Under the pieces are notes generated by a model. That model was not told the origin of the DNA and ran no database searches. It saw only the letters and a program-made list of their open reading frames with translations. From Candidatus Uhrbacteria bacterium (GTDB lineage Bacteria > Patescibacteriota > Patescibacteriia > UBA9934 > GWF2-40-263): a DNA stretch of 64,000 nt. The DNA is taken from NCBI GenBank assembly GCA_023246355.1, contig JAHFIQ010000003.1:85018-149017 (forward strand), read 5' to 3'. This document shows, piece by piece, positions 2,594 through 49,366 of the stretch. The position numbers and the translations under genes are program-made. Position 1 is the first letter of the stretch, and each line of letters starts with the position of its first letter.

Positions 2594-3895
2594 TTAGCCC
2601 TTCAAAATTTTCTCAAACCTCTCGACATCCTCTCTCACCACAAACACATCCACAAATTTCAGCTTCTCGTTGTACTTCATCAGCAGATCTGAATATTCCA
2701 TCATCGGCATGATCCGCGAACCTGCCAATACCTTTTTTTCGACAAACACGTCATGTGACGCATCTGATCCCAAGGAGGTCAGTTCTTTGCCGGCAGAATG
2801 TGTGAACCAACGAATGTTGTTCATCTCACAGATCGACTTGATCCGCTCAAGCGTCTGTCTATCGTCGGCGACACTCTCTTGCAAACGCAAAATCCGTCGA
2901 GCCGGCAGACGAGCCATGATGTGATGCGACCAATACTGTTTCGGATCGCGCGCGGCGGCAAACAACTGCTCAATCACCGCACCATCATGCAAATCCGCAT
3001 AGACATGAGGATCGGTAGGAATCGTGAGAGGAACTTCTCGCGTGGCGATCGCTTGCTCAAGGTAATGTATGAACCCGGCCTTCGTTTTATGAAAATAGAC
3101 TTGATCAAACATGTGATAGCGCGCCAAGAGGAAGGCCTCAAAGGCTCGAACGCCATTTTCGGCGAGCGTTAGAACAAACCGACCGTCTTTCTCCTGTGCA
3201 CTCATGCTGGAAATCAACCAGTCTATATCAAAGGCGCCGTAGGCCACGCCACAAAAATAACTATCGCGTAGCAGATAGTCCATCCGATCGGCATCTGCTT
3301 CGCCTGAAATCAGCTGACGCATCAGCGGATGCAGCGATTCACATCTTGATGCGATGGTCTCAAACCCTTGCGAGGGTTTCACCCCAGCATGGACAAGTGA
3401 GGCCACATCCTGAGCCAGATGCATTTCAAGTGCGCCCTCCTTTGCCATGGTCTGAAGCAAGAGCACACTATAATCCTCGTGATGCGCTTGGCGATTCTCT
3501 GTATCACTCCACCAGGTCCAGTCCATAGGCAGCGCATGGCGCATGGGAAAAATAGACTCACACTCATGGGAGAATGGTCCATGTCCAATATCATGAAGCA
3601 GACCAGCGAGCCGAATCCTCTGGCGCAGCCCGTTGATTTCCTCGGGGGTAAATCTCTCAACAAGGTTTGGTGTTCCCTCAATCACTTTTCCAAAAAGTCG
3701 CCCAGCGACATGCATCGCTCCCAGTCCGTGCATAAACCGTGTATGAACAGCGCCGGGATACACGTACGTTTGCAAAAAAGAAAGCTGTGAAATAAAACGC
3801 AACCGTTGAAAAAACGGATGGTCAATTATCTTTCGTTCAAATTCATCAAAAGCGATGCGCTTGTGAATCGGATCCCGAATCTCGTAGGGCTGCAT
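2594..3895 (-). CDS. HD-domain phosphohydrolase (dGTPase-like)
   Basis: HD motif LLHDIGHGPFSH plus RFMHGLGAMHVA; 433 aa. Confidence 0.85.
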   Translation of the reverse strand: MQPYEIRDPIHKRIAFDEFERKIIDHPFFQRLRFISQLSFLQTYVYPGAVHTRFMHGLGAMHVAGRLFGKVIEGTPNLVERFTPEEINGLRQRIRLAGLLHDIGHGPFSHECESIFPMRHALPMDWTWWSDTENRQAHHEDYSVLLLQTMAKEGALEMHLAQDVASLVHAGVKPSQGFETIASRCESLHPLMRQLISGEADADRMDYLLRDSYFCGVAYGAFDIDWLISSMSAQEKDGRFVLTLAENGVRAFEAFLLARYHMFDQVYFHKTKAGFIHYLEQAIATREVPLTIPTDPHVYADLHDGAVIEQLFAAARDPKQYWSHHIMARLPARRILRLQESVADDRQTLERIKSICEMNNIRWFTHSAGKELTSLGSDASHDVFVEKKVLAGSRIMPMMEYSDLLMKYNEKLKFVDVFVVREDVERFEKILKG

Positions 3896-3936
3896 ACCTG
3901 CCTATCCTAGTATGCACAGGACTTGCTGGCAAACGC

Positions 3937-6039
3937 TCAATCAAACCGAATCGTCTGGCCTGAACGAACTGTCCCACTTGTTGCAGGTGCCGCCACAGGA
4001 CGGGGTGCAGGAGGAGGTGGAGGAGTCAGCGTTGATGTGGCAATCACAGGTGGTCTTGGAGCGCTCGGCTGCCCGATAGGAGATCGCTCTTCACCTGGTC
4101 CTGTGGATTTTTTTCCACGTCTGCGGCGTTTCTTTCTGAGAGGATCAGCGGATTCTGTCGATGGGCGTGGAGCAATAGGTGCTGGTGATACAGAGGGAGC
4201 CTGAGTCTGCTTGCGCGCCTCACGAATTTTTTTCAAACAATCCTCACAAAACGCTGGTCGTGAACGATCAAGCTTCACGTTCGTGGAAAAATCCTTTTTG
4301 CATTCTGAACAAGTGTATGTTTCCCTGGGAACCGCTGGAATCGCCGTGACCTCTCGCTTCGGGATCACAGGAACCTCTTGCCTTTGGATAACAGGAGCTG
4401 CTGGTGCTGGTGCTGGTGCGGACGCAGGTTTTACAGGAACAAGGGCCTCCAGTTTCACGGCGGGCTGCTCTGATATTTTTTCTACCGGTGTCCCCTCTGT
4501 TGGTTTGGGAACAGGAAGAGGTTCAACCTTCGCCACAAATGGTTTTGATTTTTTTCCTCCCTTGCGTTCCTCACGGACAATCTCAATACAATCATCACAA
4601 TAAATCGGTCGCGAGCGATCAAGCTCCACAGGCAAAATGACTTCCTTAGCACAGCGCGAGCACTTGTATTCAAATCGCGGTTTTTTGTTTTCCTTGGTCG
4701 CCTTCTTCTTCGCCTCAGCTGCCTCCAAAAGCGTGTCCATGTCCGCACCCTCCATGCCGCTCCACTGCAAAATCTTTTCTTCGATCACGCCACGAGGTTG
4801 AGCATATCGCTCCCTGGAAACTTTAATGACCTTTTCTTCAGAACCTGTCACCTGTGCAATCGGCGGCAGGGTGAGCGCAGAGAACGGCTGACTCGTCACC
4901 CCATCGATGAGCAACTTAATGTAGACGTTGTACTTGGGCAGATTGATGATGTCCTCAGGCGTGAACCGGGGCATGAACTCCGTTTCCATGAATGTCGCAT
5001 CAGGCGATCCCACTCGAAACGTAATGATGGTTCCCACGTTGCCAAACACCGCGTCGCGCACTTCTTCACTCAACTGTGCCACATACTGATGCGCCATCGT
5101 CAGACACAGCCGATACTTACGTGCCTCGGACAAAATACTCGCGAACGACTCCACGGCAAAGTTTTGAAACTCGTCGACGTAGAGATAAAAATCCTTGCGT
5201 TCACTTTCAGGAATTTCCACGCGCTCCATGGCGGCCAATTGCATCTTCGTGATCAGGAGCCCTCCCAGGAGTCGGGAGTTATCTTCTCCAATTCTTCCCT
5301 TTGAAAGGTTGATGATGAAGATTTTCTCGCTGTCCATGATTTCACGCACGTTGATGGTCGACTTCACTTGCGCGACGATATTGCGAATAACCACCGCGGA
5401 CAAAAACTGACCAATCTTGTTTTGAATCGGCGCCACGGCTTCTTGTGCGTATTTTTCATTGTACGAAGCAAACTCCACCAACCAAAACTGTTTGACCACG
5501 GGGTCCTTTACGTTCCCCACGATCCGTTTGCGAAAGTCCGCATCTGAGAGCATGCGATTGATTCCCAGCAAAGTCTGTCCGGGATTATCCAAAAGCGCCA
5601 AGAGCGTGTTATTCAAAATATATTCCATGCGGCTGGACCACATGTTCTCCCAAATTTTTTGAAAGACCCCCATCATGCCCGAGACCACAAGATGCTTATG
5701 ACTTTCACTCACGGCTTCCAAAATGTTGAAGCCCACAGGAAAATCCATGTCCGCCGGGTTGAAATACACCACGTCGTTCATCCGCCAACTCGGAATAAAA
5801 TTGATGAGACGCTCGGCGGTGTCGCCGTGAGGATCAACATACGCACAACCGTGCCCTGCGTAGATGTCCGACAAAATAAGATTTTCCAACAGTACGGTCT
5901 TGCCCATGCCTGTTTTTCCAATCACATACACGTGGCGGCGGCGGTCGTCGGTCTTAATGCCAAACTTCGTCATCTTGTTGCGAAAATTCGTTTTCGCAAA
6001 ATAGTTGACCTCATTGTCGTGATCGTGATTGTAACCCAT
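3937..6039 (-). CDS. TraD/TrwB/VirD4-like coupling ATPase (FtsK/HerA superfamily) with tandem C-terminal zinc ribbons
   Basis: Walker A VIGKTGMGKT, Walker B YLYVDEFQNF, and a T4CP-like block SEARKYRLCLTMAHQYVAQLSEEVRDAVFGNVGTIITF. C-terminus has two repeated CxxC-x17-CxxC modules (YKCSRCAKEV...CDDC and YTCSECKKDF...CEDC) separated by Pro/Ala-rich linkers. Confidence 0.65.
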   Translation of the reverse strand: MGYNHDHDNEVNYFAKTNFRNKMTKFGIKTDDRRRHVYVIGKTGMGKTVLLENLILSDIYAGHGCAYVDPHGDTAERLINFIPSWRMNDVVYFNPADMDFPVGFNILEAVSESHKHLVVSGMMGVFQKIWENMWSSRMEYILNNTLLALLDNPGQTLLGINRMLSDADFRKRIVGNVKDPVVKQFWLVEFASYNEKYAQEAVAPIQNKIGQFLSAVVIRNIVAQVKSTINVREIMDSEKIFIINLSKGRIGEDNSRLLGGLLITKMQLAAMERVEIPESERKDFYLYVDEFQNFAVESFASILSEARKYRLCLTMAHQYVAQLSEEVRDAVFGNVGTIITFRVGSPDATFMETEFMPRFTPEDIINLPKYNVYIKLLIDGVTSQPFSALTLPPIAQVTGSEEKVIKVSRERYAQPRGVIEEKILQWSGMEGADMDTLLEAAEAKKKATKENKKPRFEYKCSRCAKEVILPVELDRSRPIYCDDCIEIVREERKGGKKSKPFVAKVEPLPVPKPTEGTPVEKISEQPAVKLEALVPVKPASAPAPAPAAPVIQRQEVPVIPKREVTAIPAVPRETYTCSECKKDFSTNVKLDRSRPAFCEDCLKKIREARKQTQAPSVSPAPIAPRPSTESADPLRKKRRRRGKKSTGPGEERSPIGQPSAPRPPVIATSTLTPPPPPAPRPVAAPATSGTVRSGQTIRFD

Positions 6040-7730: not shown

Positions 7731-8627
7731 CTATTTTTTTAGACGCTCTTCCCACTCAACCAGCGCCGGACTTGCAAAGAAAATTGAAGAGTACGTTCCC
7801 ACCAAAATGCCGATCATGAGCGCCAAGGCAAAGGGACGGGTAGATTCACCACCAAAGAAAAAGATAGCGGTGAGCGCTAACAGTGTCGTCATGGACGTAT
7901 TCACTGAGCGCACAAACGTTTGACGAATACTTTTTTCAACGACCTGAGGAAATAGCTCCCCGGTGTGATGCGCAAGGTTTTCACGTGTTCGATCAAACAC
8001 CACCACGGTGTCGGAAATCGAGTATCCCAAAATGGTCAGAATGGCCGCGACAAATCCAGATCCAACCTCCCAGTGATAGAAGTGTCCAAGCACGGCAAAC
8101 GCTCCTAAAGGAATAATCACATCATGCGCCGCACACAGAACCGTGATGAGTCCGTACTTCCAGGAGGCAATCGGATCTGAAACTTTTCGGAACGCCCAGG
8201 AGATATACAAACCAATCAGCAGAAGCGTGAGTCCCACACCGATCAAAGACGAACGACGCAATTCGTTTCCAACCGTTGGACCGATGGAATCAAATCGCAG
8301 CTCCGTAAAGTCCCCGAAGACCTGAGTGAGTGTGGTGAGCGTGGCTTGATGCGTGGCTTCGTCTTGAACTTCTGATCGAATAATTAACTTTTGATTTTCA
8401 TCGGCTGACTGGACAGAGACACTCGACAAGGATGTCAGGGCATCTCTCACATCTGTGGTGGAAGGCGCTCCCTGCGTAAACTCAAGCTCCATGAGCGATC
8501 CACCAGTGAAATCCACGCCAAACTTGAGACCAAACACGAACAGCGCGACGATGCTCGCGACGATCAAGACTCCGGAGAGCAGGAACCAGTATTTTCTCAG
8601 GTCAACAAAACTGAAAGAGGTCATCAT
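7731..8627 (-). CDS. secF: protein translocase subunit SecF
   Basis: SecF N-terminus (FVDLRKYWFLLSGVLIVASIVALFVFGLKFGVDFTGGS) and polytopic C-terminal half. 4-bp overlap with secD. Confidence 0.9.
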   Translation of the reverse strand: MMTSFSFVDLRKYWFLLSGVLIVASIVALFVFGLKFGVDFTGGSLMELEFTQGAPSTTDVRDALTSLSSVSVQSADENQKLIIRSEVQDEATHQATLTTLTQVFGDFTELRFDSIGPTVGNELRRSSLIGVGLTLLLIGLYISWAFRKVSDPIASWKYGLITVLCAAHDVIIPLGAFAVLGHFYHWEVGSGFVAAILTILGYSISDTVVVFDRTRENLAHHTGELFPQVVEKSIRQTFVRSVNTSMTTLLALTAIFFFGGESTRPFALALMIGILVGTYSSIFFASPALVEWEERLKK

Positions 8628-10699
8628 ACGTTTTTATGTCGAGTAATTCCGTAAAGGGCAGGACGCTGCAGAGCACGAACTCCACGAATATTTTTCATGT
8701 AGGTTCTGGTGACCGTAATGGCAGTGAACAGACTCAGCAGCACTCCCACAGCGAGCGTTAAGGCAAATCCACGTACGAAGCTCGACGTAAAGCTGTAGAG
8801 CACACAGGCAGAAATGAGGGTGGTGAGATGCCCATCACGAATCGGCGGCCAGGCACGCTTAAAGCCTTCGTCCATGGATGAGATGAGATCGCGACCACTG
8901 CGAAATTCGTCTTTGATGCGCTCAAAGATGAGCACGTTTGCATCCACGGCAATTCCCAACGACAGAATCAATCCAGCAATTCCCGAAAGGGTAATCGTCA
9001 CCCCAAACAAACGGTAGGCCGCCATGTTGAGAACCACGTACAAAATGAGCGCAGCCACAGCCAGGAGTCCAGGAAGACGATACAGAGCGATCATGAACAA
9101 CGCGACCAATAAGAATCCAAGATAAGCTGCCGTCAAACTCTTGTGCAAGGAAGCCAGACCGAGCGTCGGGCCGATGGTTTCTTGTGAGATCAGGTTGACC
9201 GGCACAGGAAGGGCACCTGCATTCAATCGTTGAGCAAGAATTTTTGCTTCCTCAAGGGTGAAGTCCCCTGTGATCACCGCCTTGCCGCCGTAGATGGCCT
9301 GTTGAACCATTGGTGTGGAGATGGGTGTGCCATCCAAGAAAATCGCAATCGGCTGTCCGACATACTCTTCGGTCAATTTGCCAAACAGGTCACCACCCTC
9401 AGCAGAAAACGTCAGCGCCACATACGGCGAGCCGGTGTTTTGATCAAACTGGACCGCCGCACGATCAAGATCTTTTCCCGAGAGTTCTGAATTCACCCAG
9501 GGCGAGGCCTCAGGAATGATGTCGTACATGTCAGAAAGCTCCATGAGGATGCGCTGGATTGTGTAGGTCGAAACGCTGCGCTCTTCTTGTTTGTAGATGA
9601 GATGGTAGCCAAAATCCGTTTCAACGATCTCAGAAATGCCACCCACGGGAAGCGCTGTGGCTGCCAGGCCAAAGGCTGGAACGTACTTGTCCGCCGTGGC
9701 AAACCCCAGGTCACCACTGTTGGTCGCTGCCGAAGGATCCGTAGAATTCTCAAGCGCAAGCTGCGCAAAATTTTCAGGCGTTGCTTGGTCTTTCAATTTT
9801 CCAATTTGGATGGATGCATCCAGTTGCGAGAGTCCAGTTGTACATCCAGTCTTTCCTTCAAAACAGATCAAGATGTGTGAAAGGTGCATTTCTGTTTTAT
9901 CCTCGTGGCTCACGTATTTGAAAATACTTACGCCATCCTCGTTTTCAAGAAGATTGTTGTAGAGCTGCCCTGGATTCATTCCGCGTTCAATCAAAATCGC
10001 GTATTCAGCAAAATACGAGTCATTGGTGATGCCGTCGATCACTCCCTTGGTCGTGTCTTTATTTTTTTCAATGCTGTTTTCTGCCACCAACGTATCAAAG
10101 TCCTCTCCAGCAAGGGCACGATTCAACACCGCGCGAGCCGCCGTGCGCTCTGCCTCGTTTGCGGTATCAAGCTGCGCTTGCTCTTCAGGAGTGAGGTCAC
10201 GATCAGTTTCCTTGCCAGGGGTTTTGAATTCAAGCACCGGCGTCTCGCCAATAAGCGCGATCGCTTCAGTGACATCCAGGACCCCGGCCAAATCAATAAT
10301 GACTCGATACGTTCCACCGGTCGTCGTTGTTTGTACGATGGGTTCAGAAACACCAAACGCGTTCACGCGCCGTTCAATCACATCTCGCACACCTTCCAGC
10401 GCCTCATTGCGGTCTGCTTCAGGAATCTGGCTCATGTCAGCTTCGTAGATCAGATGCGTTCCTCCTTGCAAATCAAGGCCGAGTTTGAATGGAATGTCAT
10501 TGATGGACGGAGGAGCCCAACCTGTTTGCGCTTGCACAAAGAGCGCACCGCGATTCCACAAAAACGGAAAATCATAGATACCAACTGCCACGGTCGCAAC
10601 CAGCAAAATAATGGCCGTGAGCCGCATTCCCCAAGGACTTTGTGAGGTTTTCTGCTGAGCTTTCTTCTTGAGCTTCCAGGTTTGCATAGGATCAAACAA
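8624..10699 (-). CDS. secD: protein translocase subunit SecD
   Basis: GLDLQGGTHLIY periplasmic-domain signature and a C-terminal SecD/SecF membrane domain; 691 aa. Confidence 0.9.
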   Translation of the reverse strand: MFDPMQTWKLKKKAQQKTSQSPWGMRLTAIILLVATVAVGIYDFPFLWNRGALFVQAQTGWAPPSINDIPFKLGLDLQGGTHLIYEADMSQIPEADRNEALEGVRDVIERRVNAFGVSEPIVQTTTTGGTYRVIIDLAGVLDVTEAIALIGETPVLEFKTPGKETDRDLTPEEQAQLDTANEAERTAARAVLNRALAGEDFDTLVAENSIEKNKDTTKGVIDGITNDSYFAEYAILIERGMNPGQLYNNLLENEDGVSIFKYVSHEDKTEMHLSHILICFEGKTGCTTGLSQLDASIQIGKLKDQATPENFAQLALENSTDPSAATNSGDLGFATADKYVPAFGLAATALPVGGISEIVETDFGYHLIYKQEERSVSTYTIQRILMELSDMYDIIPEASPWVNSELSGKDLDRAAVQFDQNTGSPYVALTFSAEGGDLFGKLTEEYVGQPIAIFLDGTPISTPMVQQAIYGGKAVITGDFTLEEAKILAQRLNAGALPVPVNLISQETIGPTLGLASLHKSLTAAYLGFLLVALFMIALYRLPGLLAVAALILYVVLNMAAYRLFGVTITLSGIAGLILSLGIAVDANVLIFERIKDEFRSGRDLISSMDEGFKRAWPPIRDGHLTTLISACVLYSFTSSFVRGFALTLAVGVLLSLFTAITVTRTYMKNIRGVRALQRPALYGITRHKNV

Positions 10700-36604: not shown

Positions 36605-37763
36605 CTATCCACTGACGTAAACGCTGCATCAGTGTCAGATAAAAATGAAGATTATGAATCGTGGAAAGACGTAGAGCTAAAATTTCGTTCACAGAAAAAA
36701 GATGGCGAAGATAGGCCCGAGACGTCGTCTTGCAGGTTTCGCAGGAACAGAATGGATCAATGCGGCCTTGGTCGAGTTGATATGTTTCGTTGGTTACGCG
36801 CAGCTTGTCATAAAAAGTCCGTAGTCCGACCTGACCCCATTCGATCGTTTCGGGTCGCTGGGTCCACACAAACAACGTTCCGTGTCTGGCATTGCGAGTC
36901 GGCAAAACACAATCAAACATGTCCACACCCATCTTCACATACTCCACAATTTCCTCTGGCATGCCGCCGCCCATGAAGTAGCGAGGTTTATCTTCCGGCA
37001 AAAGTTCGCAGACTCTGGAGGTTATCCTGTACGCATCTTCTCGAGACTCGCCCACGGAAAGTCCACCGATCGCATAGCCATCAAAACCAATGTCGACCAA
37101 TCCATTGACTGATCGCTCGCGAAGATCTTCGTGTATGCCGCCTTGGACGATACCAAACAGCTGAGCTGCCGCGTCGATATTGTCTCCGGGCCGCCGGACT
37201 GTCGCCGTCGTTCCCTCCGACAACATCGACGTGGCAGCTTTGTAAAACACATCTTTACATCGCCTCGCCCAACGTAAAGATCTCTCCATGGCTTCTTCGT
37301 ACCGCTCACGCGAGGAATCTCCCGCGGCCACATCATCAAATTGCATCGCGATATCAGATCCGATCGCGGATTGCATCTCCATGGACAGCTCTGGTGTCAG
37401 TGTGATGCGCGAGCCGTCCAGATGAGACTGAAAGATCACACCGTCTTCGGTCGTCTTATTCATCTTTGAAAGGCTGAATACTTGATAGCCGCCCGAGTCG
37501 GTTAAGATCGGCCCGTCCCAGTTCATGAATCGATGAAGTCCCCCGAGGGCTTTCATGTGTTCGAGTCCAGGGCGCAACAACAGATGGTAGGTGTTGGAAA
37601 GCAAGATCTGCGCGCCCAAATTTTTCATGTCAGCGCTCGACATCGTTTTAACCGCACCCTTGGTCGCAATGGGCATGAAAAATGGCGTCTCGATGATTCC
37701 ATGAGGCGTCGTGAGCTGCCCGCGTCGAGCACGGCCATGTGTTGTCTGCACATCCATTCCCAT
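36591..37763 (-). CDS. tgt: queuine tRNA-ribosyltransferase
   Basis: DSGGYQ catalytic region and zinc-site CSCETC; 390 aa. Confidence 0.95.
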   Translation of the reverse strand: MGMDVQTTHGRARRGQLTTPHGIIETPFFMPIATKGAVKTMSSADMKNLGAQILLSNTYHLLLRPGLEHMKALGGLHRFMNWDGPILTDSGGYQVFSLSKMNKTTEDGVIFQSHLDGSRITLTPELSMEMQSAIGSDIAMQFDDVAAGDSSRERYEEAMERSLRWARRCKDVFYKAATSMLSEGTTATVRRPGDNIDAAAQLFGIVQGGIHEDLRERSVNGLVDIGFDGYAIGGLSVGESREDAYRITSRVCELLPEDKPRYFMGGGMPEEIVEYVKMGVDMFDCVLPTRNARHGTLFVWTQRPETIEWGQVGLRTFYDKLRVTNETYQLDQGRIDPFCSCETCKTTSRAYLRHLFSVNEILALRLSTIHNLHFYLTLMQRLRQWIEKAA

Positions 37764-47461: not shown

Positions 47462-47740
47462 ATGACAACGGTGCAAGTTCGTATTGATGAAAAAACAAAA
47501 CGCGAAGCCAAGCGTGTGCTGGACGGTCTTGGCATTGACATGAGTGGCGCCATCAAACTCTACCTCCGCCAAATTTCTCTGCACCGAGGGATTCCACTGC
47601 CTCTGAGAACAAAAAATGGGTTAACACCTCAACAAGAAGTTGAGATTCTCACCGCGTCAAGTGAGGCAAAAGAAGGAAAAAACGTTTCAAAAAAAATGAG
47701 TCCTCGTCAGGCTCTCGACTATCTGAATTCACTCTCATGA
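47462..47740 (+). CDS. dinJ: RelB/DinJ-family antitoxin
   Basis: MTTVQVRIDEKTKREAKRVLDGLGIDMSGAIKLYLRQISLHRGIPLPL matches the DinJ ribbon-helix-helix pattern; 4-bp overlap with the toxin gene. Confidence 0.85.
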   Translation: MTTVQVRIDEKTKREAKRVLDGLGIDMSGAIKLYLRQISLHRGIPLPLRTKNGLTPQQEVEILTASSEAKEGKNVSKKMSPRQALDYLNSLS

Positions 47741-48000
47741 AAATTCAGTTTCACAAACGTTTTGAAAAACGTTTCCAACGACTCCCACCGCACTTGAAGC
47801 ACAAGGCAACGGAAGCCATCAATCGGTTCATGACAGATCCGTTCCATCCACTTTTACGGAATCACGCTCTCACAGGACGCATGAATGGAAAACGTGCATT
47901 TTATGTTTCGGCAAACGTTCGAATCATTTTTGAGGAACTGGATGGTTACACGCTGATTCTTCTCCTTGATATCGGATCTCACGAGATGGTTTACCGGTAA
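47737..48000 (+). CDS. yafQ: YafQ/RelE-family mRNA interferase toxin
   Basis: 87 aa; KRFQRLPPHLKHKATEAINRF...HPLLRNHALTGRMNGKRAFYVSANVRIIFEELDGYTLILLLDIGSHEMVY. Confidence 0.85.
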   Translation: MKIQFHKRFEKRFQRLPPHLKHKATEAINRFMTDPFHPLLRNHALTGRMNGKRAFYVSANVRIIFEELDGYTLILLLDIGSHEMVYR

Positions 48001-48056
48001 AAGATTCCCTTGATCCGACTGGCATTGTTATGCTACGCTTCGCCGCACCAAAAGAC

Positions 48057-48131
48057 GGCCCCATCGTCTAACGGTTAGGACGGCAGGTTCTCATCCTGCA
48101 AACCGGGGTTCGATTCCCCGTGGGGTCACCA
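48057..48131 (+). tRNA. tRNA-Glu (anticodon CUC), CCA encoded
   Basis: Cloverleaf: acceptor GGCCCCA/TGGGGTC, D-arm GTCT-AACGGTTA-GGAC, anticodon arm GCAGG-TTCTCAT-CCTGC, T-arm CGGGG-TTCGATT-CCCCG, 3' ACCA. Confidence 0.85.
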
Positions 48132-48173
48132 ACTAAAACACCTGAGTTTTCTCGGGTGTTTTAGTTGGTGACC
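48124..48173 (+). repeat. 19-bp perfect inverted repeat that includes the tRNA-Glu 3' acceptor/CCA end
   Basis: GGTCACCAACTAAAACACC-tgagttttctcg-GGTGTTTTAGTTGGTGACC, followed at 48175-48215 by an inverted partial copy of the tRNA T-arm region (GTGGGGAATCGAAC) interrupted by the palindrome GCACATGCCctgcGGCATGTGC. Confidence 0.7.
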
Positions 48174-48291
48174 TAAGCACATGCCCTGCGGCATGTGCGT
48201 GGGGAATCGAACGCCGGAGCCATATGCGGCCAGCAGGCCGCATGGCGAGGCGGTGCCCAGCCCGAGCCGCTGCAGCGGCGAGAGGCGCGGG

Positions 48292-48312
48292 CGATTCCCC
48301 GTGGGGTCACCA
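48292..48312 (+). repeat. 21-bp direct repeat of the tRNA-Glu 3' end (att-like)
   Basis: cgattccccgtggggtcacca is identical to 48111-48131. The intervening 48216-48291 is ~70% GC and packed with palindromes (GCCGCTGCAGCGGC, CCATATGCGGCCagcaGGCCGCATGG). Confidence 0.7.
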
Positions 48313-48365
48313 CAAAAAGACGTACCCGTGATATGTTCGCTACCGATCACTCGTACGTCTTTTTG
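48313..48365 (+). other. 13-bp-stem hairpin (CAAAAAGACGTAC...GTACGTCTTTTTG) after the att-like repeat
   Basis: Perfect 13-bp arms with a 27-nt loop and flanking A/T runs. Possible bidirectional terminator. Confidence 0.4.
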
Positions 48366-48400
48366 TTTGTCTAAAAAGTCCGTAGTCGGACCTGACCCCA

Positions 48401-49366
48401 TTACTCCGGATACTCACTTACATACACCATGAAATACGAACCGTCGGCTAGCTCGGCGACGGCCATATCTTGGATGTAGCCGCTTCCGAGCGTGGAAGCC
48501 GCTGTGGCATCCAGGGCAATGTCGTCAGCCGTCCAGGTGGTTGCATCCGTTGTTGTGAACGAACGAATATTTGAATCAGGAAGAGAGAAACCAAATAGGC
48601 GCATCATGGAACCGTTAAACGTCGGATTAGAAATAATGTAGCCGCGCAGTGGAAGCTCAACGGTCGAAGGTGTCGTAAGGGTAAATGTTTTCCCGTCGGT
48701 TGAGGTTGCGTGATGTTGTTCCCCTGTCTTTTCATCCAACACAAACATATGCCACAGGCCATCAAAGAACATCGTGGAGGAATCGTTGAGATTATGTGTT
48801 GGGGATAGCGCAACACCTTTGTACGTAAACGCGATGCCGTCAGGACTCTCTGCATAGGCGATCCCCAGCGTGTTGTCCTGTTTCACGTTGGTCGTAAAAA
48901 ATAATCGGAAGGTTCCATCATCAAGCAAGACTATATCTGGATCACTTGGCGGGCGGTCAGACGTGGAAGGCCAATTGAGGCGCGTGGTGAAATGATAGGT
49001 CCACGTCTTCCCGTTGTCGCTTGAAATCGCCACAGGCATTGTTTCTTTTCCTTCTTCAATCCCTTGACCAATGTAGTACAGATAGATGGTTCCCTCGTCA
49101 GTCACTACCATGTCGGGAACGTTTCCCTGCTCGGTGAAAATCTCTCCCGTTGGTGTGAAATGAATCCCATCCGTGGAGGTTGCTGTAAGCAGTCGTCGTT
49201 CTCCTGCACTGGCAGGTGGTGGATTTTCTGCTTTTTCCGTTGGCGGAGTGAAATCACTCGTCTGTGTCTGTACGTCCGCATCACTCACGGACGATTCACT
49301 TGCCGATGAACAACCAAACCCAAGTATGACGATTCCCATCAGCACAAAAGATAGATATTTTTTCAT
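48401..49366 (-). CDS. BNR/Asp-box repeat lipoprotein (sialidase/glycosidase-like beta-propeller)
   Basis: Lipobox ILGFGCSS and Asp-box repeats SSDNGKTW and STDGKTFT; 321 aa. Confidence 0.6.
   Translation of the reverse strand: MKKYLSFVLMGIVILGFGCSSASESSVSDADVQTQTSDFTPPTEKAENPPPASAGERRLLTATSTDGIHFTPTGEIFTEQGNVPDMVVTDEGTIYLYYIGQGIEEGKETMPVAISSDNGKTWTYHFTTRLNWPSTSDRPPSDPDIVLLDDGTFRLFFTTNVKQDNTLGIAYAESPDGIAFTYKGVALSPTHNLNDSSTMFFDGLWHMFVLDEKTGEQHHATSTDGKTFTLTTPSTVELPLRGYIISNPTFNGSMMRLFGFSLPDSNIRSFTTTDATTWTADDIALDATAASTLGSGYIQDMAVAELADGSYFMVYVSEYPE

Follow-up and report, generated by a model that had tools for sequence, protein, structure and literature searches.

A candidate family of structured, RtT-like units at the 3′ ends of tRNA genes in Patescibacteria

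The tyrT-distal repeat of Escherichia coli, a 178-bp sequence repeated 3.14 times, is the described system closest in design to the element considered here, and these repeats, together with the RtT RNA, had reportedly been described by 1991. A passage in one paper counts rttR among the units repeated in the tyrT operon, with reference to Bosl and Kersten, 1991 (PMC3318445), and a statement in a preprint holds that rttR/RtT may modulate the stringent response, with an unknown mode of action (bioRxiv 10.1101/2024.07.17.603846). The locus analyzed here lies in a 64,000-nt stretch of Candidatus Uhrbacteria DNA (contig JAHFIQ010000003.1, positions 85,018 to 149,017; hereafter the window), in which a tRNA-Glu(CTC) gene with an encoded CCA (48057–48131, + strand; ARAGORN, and Rfam RF00005 at 60.8 bits) is followed by inverted and direct copies of its own 3′ end. 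The DNA from 48132 to 48372 is probably one copy of a recurrent family in Patescibacteria, made up of ~140–160-nt structured non-coding modules at the 3′ ends of tRNA genes. An initial annotation of this region had listed five repeat features near the tRNA-Glu 3′ end and read them as a scar of integration; all five were recovered at the same positions, far beyond chance expectation, and it is their reading that changes.

Comparison of the tRNA-Glu locus with RtT and other described systems

In the E. coli K-12 tyrT locus (L150; L-numbers label the loci and contigs that were compared, and WIN the window's copy of the unit), the Rfam model of RtT, RF00391, gave four matches of 133–138 bits, one lying between tyrT and tyrV and three after tyrV. 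The RtT consensus closes with GGGGAAGGAU and AUCCUUCCCC and then CACCACCA, which are an inverted and a direct copy of the tRNA-Tyr 3′ end. Modules of the family described here have a similar order relative to their tRNA. They begin with the acceptor 3′ strand copied in inverted orientation, which a hairpin, hp2, separates from an inverted T-stem and T-loop copy; the core, made of two hairpins, comes next, and then the tRNA 3′ end from the 3′ half of the T-loop through CCA, copied directly, and a terminator.

In the window, the direct copy is a perfect 21-nt repeat. Its first occurrence (CGATTCCCCGTGGGGTCACCA, 48111–48131, + strand) comprises the 3′ part of the T-loop, the 3′ strands of the T-stem and acceptor stem, and the CCA of the functional tRNA, and its second (48292–48312, + strand, 100% identity) makes up the 3′ side of the helices that close the unit and ends in CCA, like a tRNA. 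These are the only two sites of the 21-mer in the window when up to three mismatches are allowed, where shuffled sequences are expected to give 0; recurrence of the 21-mer at many non-tRNA loci, which the initial annotation had named as evidence that would count against an insertion, does not occur in the window. Hairpin 1, recognized as an inverted repeat (48124–48173, + strand), is long and starts in the last 8 nt of the tRNA; its 23-nt arms (48124–48146 and 48151–48173) are 96% complementary, and their perfect 19-bp part (GGTCACCAACTAAAACACC and GGTGTTTTAGTTGGTGACC) takes in those last 8 nt. Its 3′ arm, GGGTGTTTTAGTT, is similar to the tRNA terminator GGGTGTTTTTGTT of a related locus (L149) and terminates in TGGTGACC (48166–48173), in which the acceptor 3′ strand and CCA are copied in inverted orientation. 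A palindrome (48172–48203) separates this copy from the inverted T-arm copy, and the seven-unit alignment described below places hp2 here, a 9-bp hairpin GCACATGCC-CTGC-GGCATGTGC (48177–48198, + strand) situated between the anti-acceptor and anti-T strands, the place at which the D and anticodon arms branch off in a tRNA.

The inverted T-arm copy itself (GGGGAATCGAACGCCGG, 48201–48217, + strand) was supported by inverted repeats, by minimum-free-energy folds and as helix 4 of the seven-unit alignment; it is 94% complementary to 48103–48119, and within it GGGGAATCG (48201–48209) pairs with CGATTCCCC (48292–48300) of the second repeat copy. Two core arms follow on the + strand: P2 (48212–48252; CGCC-GGA-GCCAT..AGCA loop..ATGGC-GA-GGCG), identified from the fold, from compensatory pairs relative to the unit of L136 and from a weak covariance-model match, carries a GGA/GA internal-loop motif common across the family, and P3 (48255–48291), identified from the fold, is GC-rich and has a tip hairpin GCCGC-TGCA-GCGGC that is also present in L136, there 2 bp longer. 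The 74 nt from 48218 to 48291 are 77% GC, compared with 52% across the window as a whole. After the second repeat copy, an inverted repeat forms a terminator-like hairpin (AAAAAGACGTAC...GTACGTCTTTTT, then a T-run; 48312–48372, + strand) with arms at 48312–48332 and 48346–48366 followed by TTTTTGTTTG; a simple terminator scan missed this hairpin, whose loop is >8 nt, and its start, CAAAAA, and its end, TTTTTGTTTG, match the terminator directly 3′ of tRNA-Glu in L149. The RNA fold of 48057–48375 has a z-score of −13 relative to shuffled sequences. Because the inverted and direct copies pair, the module is predicted to fold into a junction that resembles that of a tRNA: it would have an acceptor-like helix and one side arm, and the core would stand in place of the loop of a T-stem-like helix.

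RtT and the window element are alike in being units of ~130–180 nt that closely follow a tRNA gene on its 3′ side and share its strand, either single or in tandem; in ending with a direct copy of the tRNA 3′ end from T-loop to CCA (AATCCTTCCCCCACCACCA from E. coli tRNA-Tyr, and the 21-mer in the window); in having an inverted copy of the T-loop and T-stem 3′ strand that pairs with the direct copy (GGGGAAGGAU/AUCCUUCCCC in E. coli, GGGGAAUCG/CGAUUCCCC in the window); and in a closing helix that encloses internal hairpins, of which the RtT consensus has two. They differ in phylum and in the tRNA, which is Glu or Ser rather than Tyr in the family of the window, and in that the window unit also pairs the acceptor 3′ strand and CCA (TGGTGACC), has its inverted copy split by the extra hp2, and is set off from the tRNA by a terminator-like hairpin. 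Some copies of this family also lie away from tRNA genes, and there is no tpr-like small open reading frame (ORF). The window element may therefore be called RtT-like by architecture, not by membership in RF00391.

The duplications left by integrases at attachment (att) sites of the T-loop class, including those of cis-mobilizable elements (CIMEs), which are att-flanked and lack an integrase, also present a direct repeat of a tRNA 3′ end running from the T-loop to the 3′ terminus, with the intact tRNA proximal and the displaced 3′ end and original terminator distal, and further resemblances are an empty site in the relative L149 and tandem accretion with a decayed older copy in L130. In contrast to such duplications, the locus shows no integrase or excisionase, and its insert, just 160 nt long, recurs at similar size with a conserved structure and contains an inverted tRNA copy that pairs with the distal repeat; in relatives the duplication reaches beyond the tRNA into the terminator. 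The tRNA-like domain of tmRNA and the YrlA/Y RNAs share with the window unit the formation of acceptor-like and T-stem-like helices from the 5′ and 3′ ends of the RNA, with the rest inserted between them, and a tRNA-like 3′ end with CCA. The window unit differs from these in giving neither a tmRNA call (ARAGORN) nor a tmRNA or Y RNA match (Rfam), in lacking an intact T-loop, in that its CCA is base-paired, and in that its helices copy the neighboring tRNA instead of a fixed alanine-type acceptor. A tRNA or tmRNA on the minus strand, formed by the inverted copy, was also considered and rejected, as ARAGORN predicted none and its T-stem would not pair.

A covarying family of units with tRNA-matched ends

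Related loci were retrieved by scanning metagenomes with the 19-mer CGATTCCCCGTGGGGTCAC, which yielded at least 120 stretches, mostly tRNA-Glu genes. A covariance model (R2; 154 model positions) constructed from six units of other contigs, with the window sequence excluded, matched the window over its full length (48165–48312, + strand; cmsearch 47.5 bits, E = 8.6e-13, model positions 1–154 of 154), and this was its only match in the window. R2 also detected new units in L081 and L073 and at a fourth site in L031 (JACCDV010554741.1), and gave weak matches to the units of L144 and L123. A second model (R1) represents a sister sub-group (L061, L072, L096, L099, L101, and L117) in which the outer P2 helix is flanked by GGA and GA and P3 reads GGUCGnG...CGUGACC with an invariant G.U pair; two further units, in L031 and L114, were found with it. 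Its match to the window (48212–48284, with the GCCGGA...CGAGGCGG motif aligned) scored 13.4 bits, below default filters. The insert is thus a full-length member of a covarying family, of similar size in many unrelated contigs, and the proposal of the initial annotation that it is the remnant of an excised or decayed element is not supported. Within the window locus, Rfam at both gathering and permissive thresholds recognized the tRNA only; the family is not in Rfam 15, and no description of it was found in literature searches.

The units of WIN and L136 are clearly homologous (78% mean column identity over the full alignment), and 11 of their 41 predicted pairs are changed on both sides, five of these in hp2, with the CTGC loop kept. 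An alignment of seven units (WIN, L136, L031a/c/d, L114a, and the tRNA-Ser-associated L132) contained 25 consensus pairs, at which 95.4% of cells pair compared with 77.8% in shuffles and 38–48% in slid controls; 17 of the 25 pairs are changed on both sides, where 6.5 are expected, and 0 of 500 shuffles attain these values. In hp2, eight of nine pairs are compensatory and 100% of cells pair, and its CTGC loop is common to WIN, L136, L031a/c/d, and L132. The same fold recurs across loci, with the inverted copy pairing with the direct copy to close a domain of two or three hairpins. The L032/L130 group has invariant G.U pairs in its closing helix and the R1 group has them in P3, and the + strand fold is more stable than that of the − strand in four of five units; the family thus has a preference for the tRNA strand.

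The ends of the units match whichever tRNA adjoins them. In WIN, L061, L072, L031d, and L114a this is tRNA-Glu, whereas the units of L132 and L099 adjoin tRNA-Ser(CGA), and their inverted copies (GGAGGATTTGAA and GAGAGGGGGAGATTCGAA, respectively) and direct copies (CTCCTCCCGCCTCCG and CCCTCTCCGCCA) fit the 3′ end of tRNA-Ser, by complementarity or identity, and not that of tRNA-Glu. The core of L132 is nevertheless very close to those of the Glu-associated L031c/d and L114a, sharing the hp2 loop AACTGCT and a P3 of the form GA-nnn-TGTAA-nnn-TC with a GTAA loop, and the core of L099 belongs to the R1 sub-group; in Glu and Ser units alike, hp2 branches from an identical junction, with the anti-acceptor segment on one side and the anti-T segment on the other. 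In L073, a partial R2 match (3834–3892, − strand; 21.5 bits, E = 2e-4) lies just 3′ of a tRNA-Val(GAC) gene (3929–4002, − strand), a position that hints that the family also attaches to tRNA-Val.

Among the matches listed, 9 of the 87 tRNA-Glu loci whose downstream sequence was long enough show a second GTGGGGTCA 83–180 nt downstream, and 2 of 95 show one upstream. The layout seen in the window, that is, a tRNA, an insert of ~105–170 nt and a second tRNA 3′ end, was found in L032, L061, L072, L111, L120, L123, and L130, the last with two units in a tandem array whose older copy has a decayed repeat. Units also occur away from tRNAs (L081, L114, and the inner units of L031), with several in tandem in L031 and L114, up to 7 kb from the tRNA; the unit of L142 is 3.8 kb from a tRNA-Glu on the opposite strand, and L136 and L051 carry a unit although neither contig has a tRNA gene, the direct copy being still perfect in both. 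The region upstream of the L136 unit was considered as a decayed tRNA, which was suggestive and not significant (33 of 500 shuffles reach the score). In L031, positions 1–2760 hold tRNA-Glu(CTC) at 52–124, then two small ORFs and an array of at least four units. At the end of the L120 contig (~1–250 in + coordinates, read on −), a 127-nt unit stands in tandem after tRNA-Glu(TTC) and includes an anticodon-arm-like piece (CCGCCTTTCACGGCGG) as well as a full T-arm and 3′ end; this may be another kind of partial tRNA repeat or a contig-end assembly artifact. The L142 unit (~9400–9750 in + strand coordinates, read on −) is flanked by RecO and by a metallo-beta-lactamase-fold protein matching Pfam Lactamase_B_2, the fold of RNase Z, a single case that is suggestive given the tRNA-like 3′ end of the unit.

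Relatives of the locus differ in the presence of the unit. Homologs of the neighboring ABC-F protein are labeled Candidatus Uhrbacteria or Patescibacteria by their sources, and L149, which is Uhrbacteria-like (ABC-F 86% identical), has a tRNA-Glu(CTC) with 71 of 75 nt identical to that of the window, directly followed by a terminator, CAAAAATGCTCAGC...GCTGGGTGTTTTTGTTTG, that resembles both window hairpins, including the flank of the second repeat copy. L149 is therefore an empty site, and the absence of empty sites among relatives, which the initial annotation had offered as grounds for rejecting an insertion, was not observed. In L144 and L145 (ABC-F 86% identical), a tRNA-Glu(CTC) with the T-stem variant CTCCG is followed by a terminator, an inverted copy TTGACCCCAC, hairpins, a direct copy GATTCTCCGTGGGGTCA, and a second terminator; in L144, the direct copy bears that genome's own T-stem variant (TCTCC), the two terminators differ by compensatory changes, and the insert, judged by eye, is unlike that of the window, so that a different unit is present at tRNA-Glu. 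Other genes come after ABC-F in L143 and L146 (ABC-F 93% and 87% identical), which places the block of RelB, YafQ, tRNA, and unit at a synteny break. The tRNA-Glu(CTC) is divergent from a Na/H exchanger gene in L144 and co-directional with it in L149, and in the window the two are separated by ABC-F and RelB/YafQ; since the orientation and neighbors of tRNA-Glu vary in this way among close relatives, the locus is a rearrangement hotspot.

Synteny through the adjacent 321-aa gene was uninformative, its homologs being ≤71% identical and in unrelated contexts, and a scan of species-representative genomes with the tRNA pattern, a set to which the window's own genome does not belong, returned three contigs (two from metagenome-assembled genomes of Ca. 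Shapirobacteria and one labeled Pseudomonadales), all with plain tRNAs. Four contigs of the same strain from ENA/Logan samples span the locus and are all identical to the window, with no empty site within the population; hairpins and a 30-nt k-mer overlap in the 5′ part of the tRNA account for the contigs that break off within the region. A 519-nt contig (L011, ERZ27279977) matches the window exactly as far as tRNA position 17, beyond which the two differ (…CATCGTCTA|CGGCCATCACCA); it may represent a chimeric or variant assembly path.

Proposed role of the unit and rival explanations

The best-supported reading of the 21-nt direct repeat is that it is a working strand of the module and not an integrase scar. 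Transcription of the unit would follow the tRNA strand, with RNA polymerase either reading through hairpin 1 or starting at a site of the unit's own, and the transcript would be trimmed by the tRNA 3′-end machinery to a stable RNA of ~150–180 nt ending in CCA, which could act as a mimic or decoy of the tRNA acceptor/T arm toward some tRNA-binding factor. Duplication or template switching, at the 3′ ends of tRNAs and at the associated terminator hairpins, may add copies, and recombination between the two direct copies may remove them, which would restore a plain tRNA gene. Our best guess is an RNA that mimics a tRNA arm and is gained and lost by recombination at tRNA 3′ ends.

A wider claim, which we hold only tentatively and consider rather less likely than the reading above, is that the units constitute a new tRNA-matched structured RNA class within Patescibacteria, with a conserved hp2/P2/P3 core and closing strands that copy the tRNA served (Glu, Ser, and perhaps Val), acting as acceptor/T-arm mimics or as target-matched guides. 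If mimics, they would imply regulation of tRNA processing, charging surveillance, or a starvation response in hosts with minimal regulatory machinery; if guides, they would serve an unrecognized mobile system homing to tRNA 3′ ends. Were such an RNA class real, it would make E. coli RtT the enterobacterial case of something much more widespread and still uncharacterized. The occurrence of the same design without sequence similarity in a distant, genome-reduced phylum, with strong covariation and retargeting of the ends, argues that the design is selected or mechanistically favored, and the family supplies many natural variants for testing what such units do. Repeats of tRNA 3′ ends are routinely taken as integrase scars, and a second, structured cause is missed by annotation pipelines; structured units of this kind could inflate counts of genomic-island remnants.

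Several points weigh against this interpretation. The transcription, processing, and function of the unit all rest on inference, and a role at the DNA level, as a recombination site or a folded single-stranded site, is possible. Hairpin 1, which lies between tRNA and unit, looks like a real terminator in some relatives (L144, L032), and the unit may therefore need its own promoter, although none was identified. The link to RtT is by design only, as RF00391 (gathering score 45 bits) was unmatched at E ≤ 10 in 47900–48500 and at E ≤ 1 in nine related loci. The family is heterogeneous, with R1 giving the window just 13 bits, and retrieval of loci with a perfect 19-mer biases which copies of the unit could be seen. 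In a duplex-energy test, which is noisy because the repeat is GC-rich and self-complementary, pairing of the closing helix was clear only for WIN, L061, L072, and L144 (0 of 300 shuffles) and not significant for the others, and covariation in that helix is partly built in, since both of its strands derive from the same tRNA. The chief gap in the interpretation is that it offers no account of how the inverted and direct copies would both be refitted to a new tRNA.

The scar proposed initially corresponds to a miniature, non-autonomous integrative element (att-only, CIME-like) or its remnant, for which a tyrosine integrase acting in trans would have joined an attP carrying a tRNA-Glu 3′ end to the T-loop of the gene, so that the tRNA was completed by the copy on the element, and its original 3′ end and terminator came to lie 181 nt downstream. 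This origin is unlikely, although part of the scar reading stands: the locus does contain an extra piece relative to a plain tRNA gene, as in L149, whose post-CCA sequence is like the flank of the second repeat copy, and the repeat begins in the T-loop and finishes exactly at CCA, as att sites do. It also fits L111, where the proximal tRNA copy is without CCA and the distal copy retains CCA and the terminator, the decayed repeat in the older copy of the L130 array, and the position of the locus beside a toxin-antitoxin pair and at a synteny break. In L031, a 46-nt partial tRNA-Glu copy (2250–2296, anticodon loop to 3′ end) bounds a 2.1-kb integrase-free segment, after which another unit follows; it is a genuine att-type duplication, and tRNA-Glu is therefore also an integration target in these organisms. 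Likewise, the viral contig L012 (IMGVR_UViG_3300025722_000011, 10019–10052) ends in the last 34 nt of tRNA-Glu, and many marine contigs (L039, L044, L059, L083, L085, L106, and L107) have partial tRNA-Glu copies that start from the anticodon stem, with unrelated DNA before them. The partial copies in L012 and the marine contigs are ordinary integrase att sites on another tRNA-Glu variant. No tyrosine or serine recombinase gene or remnant, however, was found: the ~160-nt insert itself cannot code for a protein, precomputed Pfam annotation showed no integrase within ~6 kb in the window, and none was seen at six related loci, where larger ORFs within 3.5 kb were judged by eye and ten neighbor ORFs compared with Pfam gave PIN, metallo-beta-lactamase-fold, RecO, PGI, and DUF922 matches and no recombinase. 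An att core predicts neither an inverted tRNA copy nor its pairing with the direct copy to make the closing helix of the module, and the conserved RNA-type structure with G.U pairs, the units in arrays and away from tRNAs, and the closely similar core with Ser-matched ends in L132 are likewise at odds with it. Unlike an att core, the duplication runs through the terminator or flank in L144, L136, and L132, while the identity block in the window is 21 nt, from T-loop to CCA. Viral, phage, and plasmid collections yielded no copies: among viral contigs, the 21-mer matched only the contig-end att fragment and a phage tRNA-Glu and the pattern of inverted plus direct copies was absent, and BLAST of the insert gave nothing in phages and one spurious GC-rich match in plasmids.

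Two further explanations are each improbable, more so than an integrative element. The units might be a functionless by-product of DNA hairpins, in which recurrent template switching, at the tRNA's terminator hairpin and at neighboring palindromes, produced first an inverted and then a direct copy of the tRNA 3′ end (quasi-palindrome extension or inverted triplication). Such switching would match the ends to whichever tRNA adjoins and would make the terminator part of the duplication, as it is in L144, L136, and L132; terminator hairpin stems do reach into the tRNA 3′ end at many tRNA-Glu loci (L069, L073, L092, L101, L138, and the L142 unit), and 6 of 171 tRNAs have an inverted match of ≥10 nt to their tail downstream, compared with 1 of 178 upstream. 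Yet hp2, P2, and P3 are not derived from tRNA and are conserved across contigs, with compensatory changes and the loop motifs CTGC, GTAA, and GGA/GA, hp2 occupies the identical junction in Glu and Ser versions, and the direct copy stays perfect in the two contigs without a tRNA gene. Alternatively, the unit might belong to a mobile element and be programmable and target-matched, either as an RNA or as a folded single-stranded DNA site, with the tRNA copies acting as a guide or target mimic for an unidentified recombinase or nuclease, by analogy with IS110 bridge RNAs, the folded attP of CTX phage, and integron attC. The near-identical core with ends for different tRNAs (L132 compared with L031d and L114a) would suit a programmable element, as would the presence or absence of units among relatives, the different variants at the same tRNA, and the spacing of 75–100 nt between inverted and direct copies; the folded CTX attP has a similar 75–100-nt separation of its inverted and direct copies. 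Against it, no recurrent neighbor protein of any kind was seen (window Pfam annotation; related loci by eye and the ten ORFs), the putative guide would be sequestered in a helix, signs of mobility are limited to presence or absence, and the viral, phage, and plasmid collections again yielded no copies.

Three other candidates were rejected. The suggestion in the initial annotation of a tRNA-targeting miniature inverted-repeat transposable element came close in positing a small, tRNA-associated repeat element and fails as to the class of element, with one copy in the 64-kb window, terminal inverted segments that vary with the neighboring tRNA instead of being fixed, and no transposase seen. A decayed second tRNA gene between the repeats was dismissed, no similarity to the 5′ part of the tRNA being visible by eye, as was a group I intron in the T-loop, for which the insert is too small and has no Rfam intron match; the paper on tRNA introns in Patescibacteria covers position 35/36 only.

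Neighboring genes and minor observations

The dinJ-yafQ module that had been placed immediately upstream has precomputed Pfam support as RelB (~47462–47740) and YafQ (47737–48000), both upstream of tRNA-Glu, and the genes with Pfam matches within ~6 kb are GrpE, HrcA, Na/H exchanger, ABC-F, RelB, YafQ, YHYH, PP2C, Mur ligase, and PBP. Toxin-antitoxin pairs adjoin units at two unrelated loci, namely RelB/YafQ in the window (47462–48000) and, in L123, a PIN-domain toxin with a small upstream ORF (ORFs at 7795–8560 of the reverse-complemented locus). The tRNA 5′ leader CACCAAAAGACGGCCCC (48046–48062) is similar to CACAAAAAGACGTACCC (48311–48327), which comes after the second repeat copy, and 48047–48057 of the leader is complementary to the 3′ arm of the final hairpin (48356–48366); the resemblance may be the trace of an older duplication that included the tRNA, or chance. 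A 27-nt sequence, AAAAGTCCGTAGTCGGACCTGACCCCA, with a hairpin GTCCG-TAGT-CGGAC, occurs with one mismatch at 48374–48400, just beyond the stop codon of the 321-aa gene, and at 36813–36839; blastn extends the match to 35 nt at 94% identity, and it may be a short intergenic repeat of the genome.

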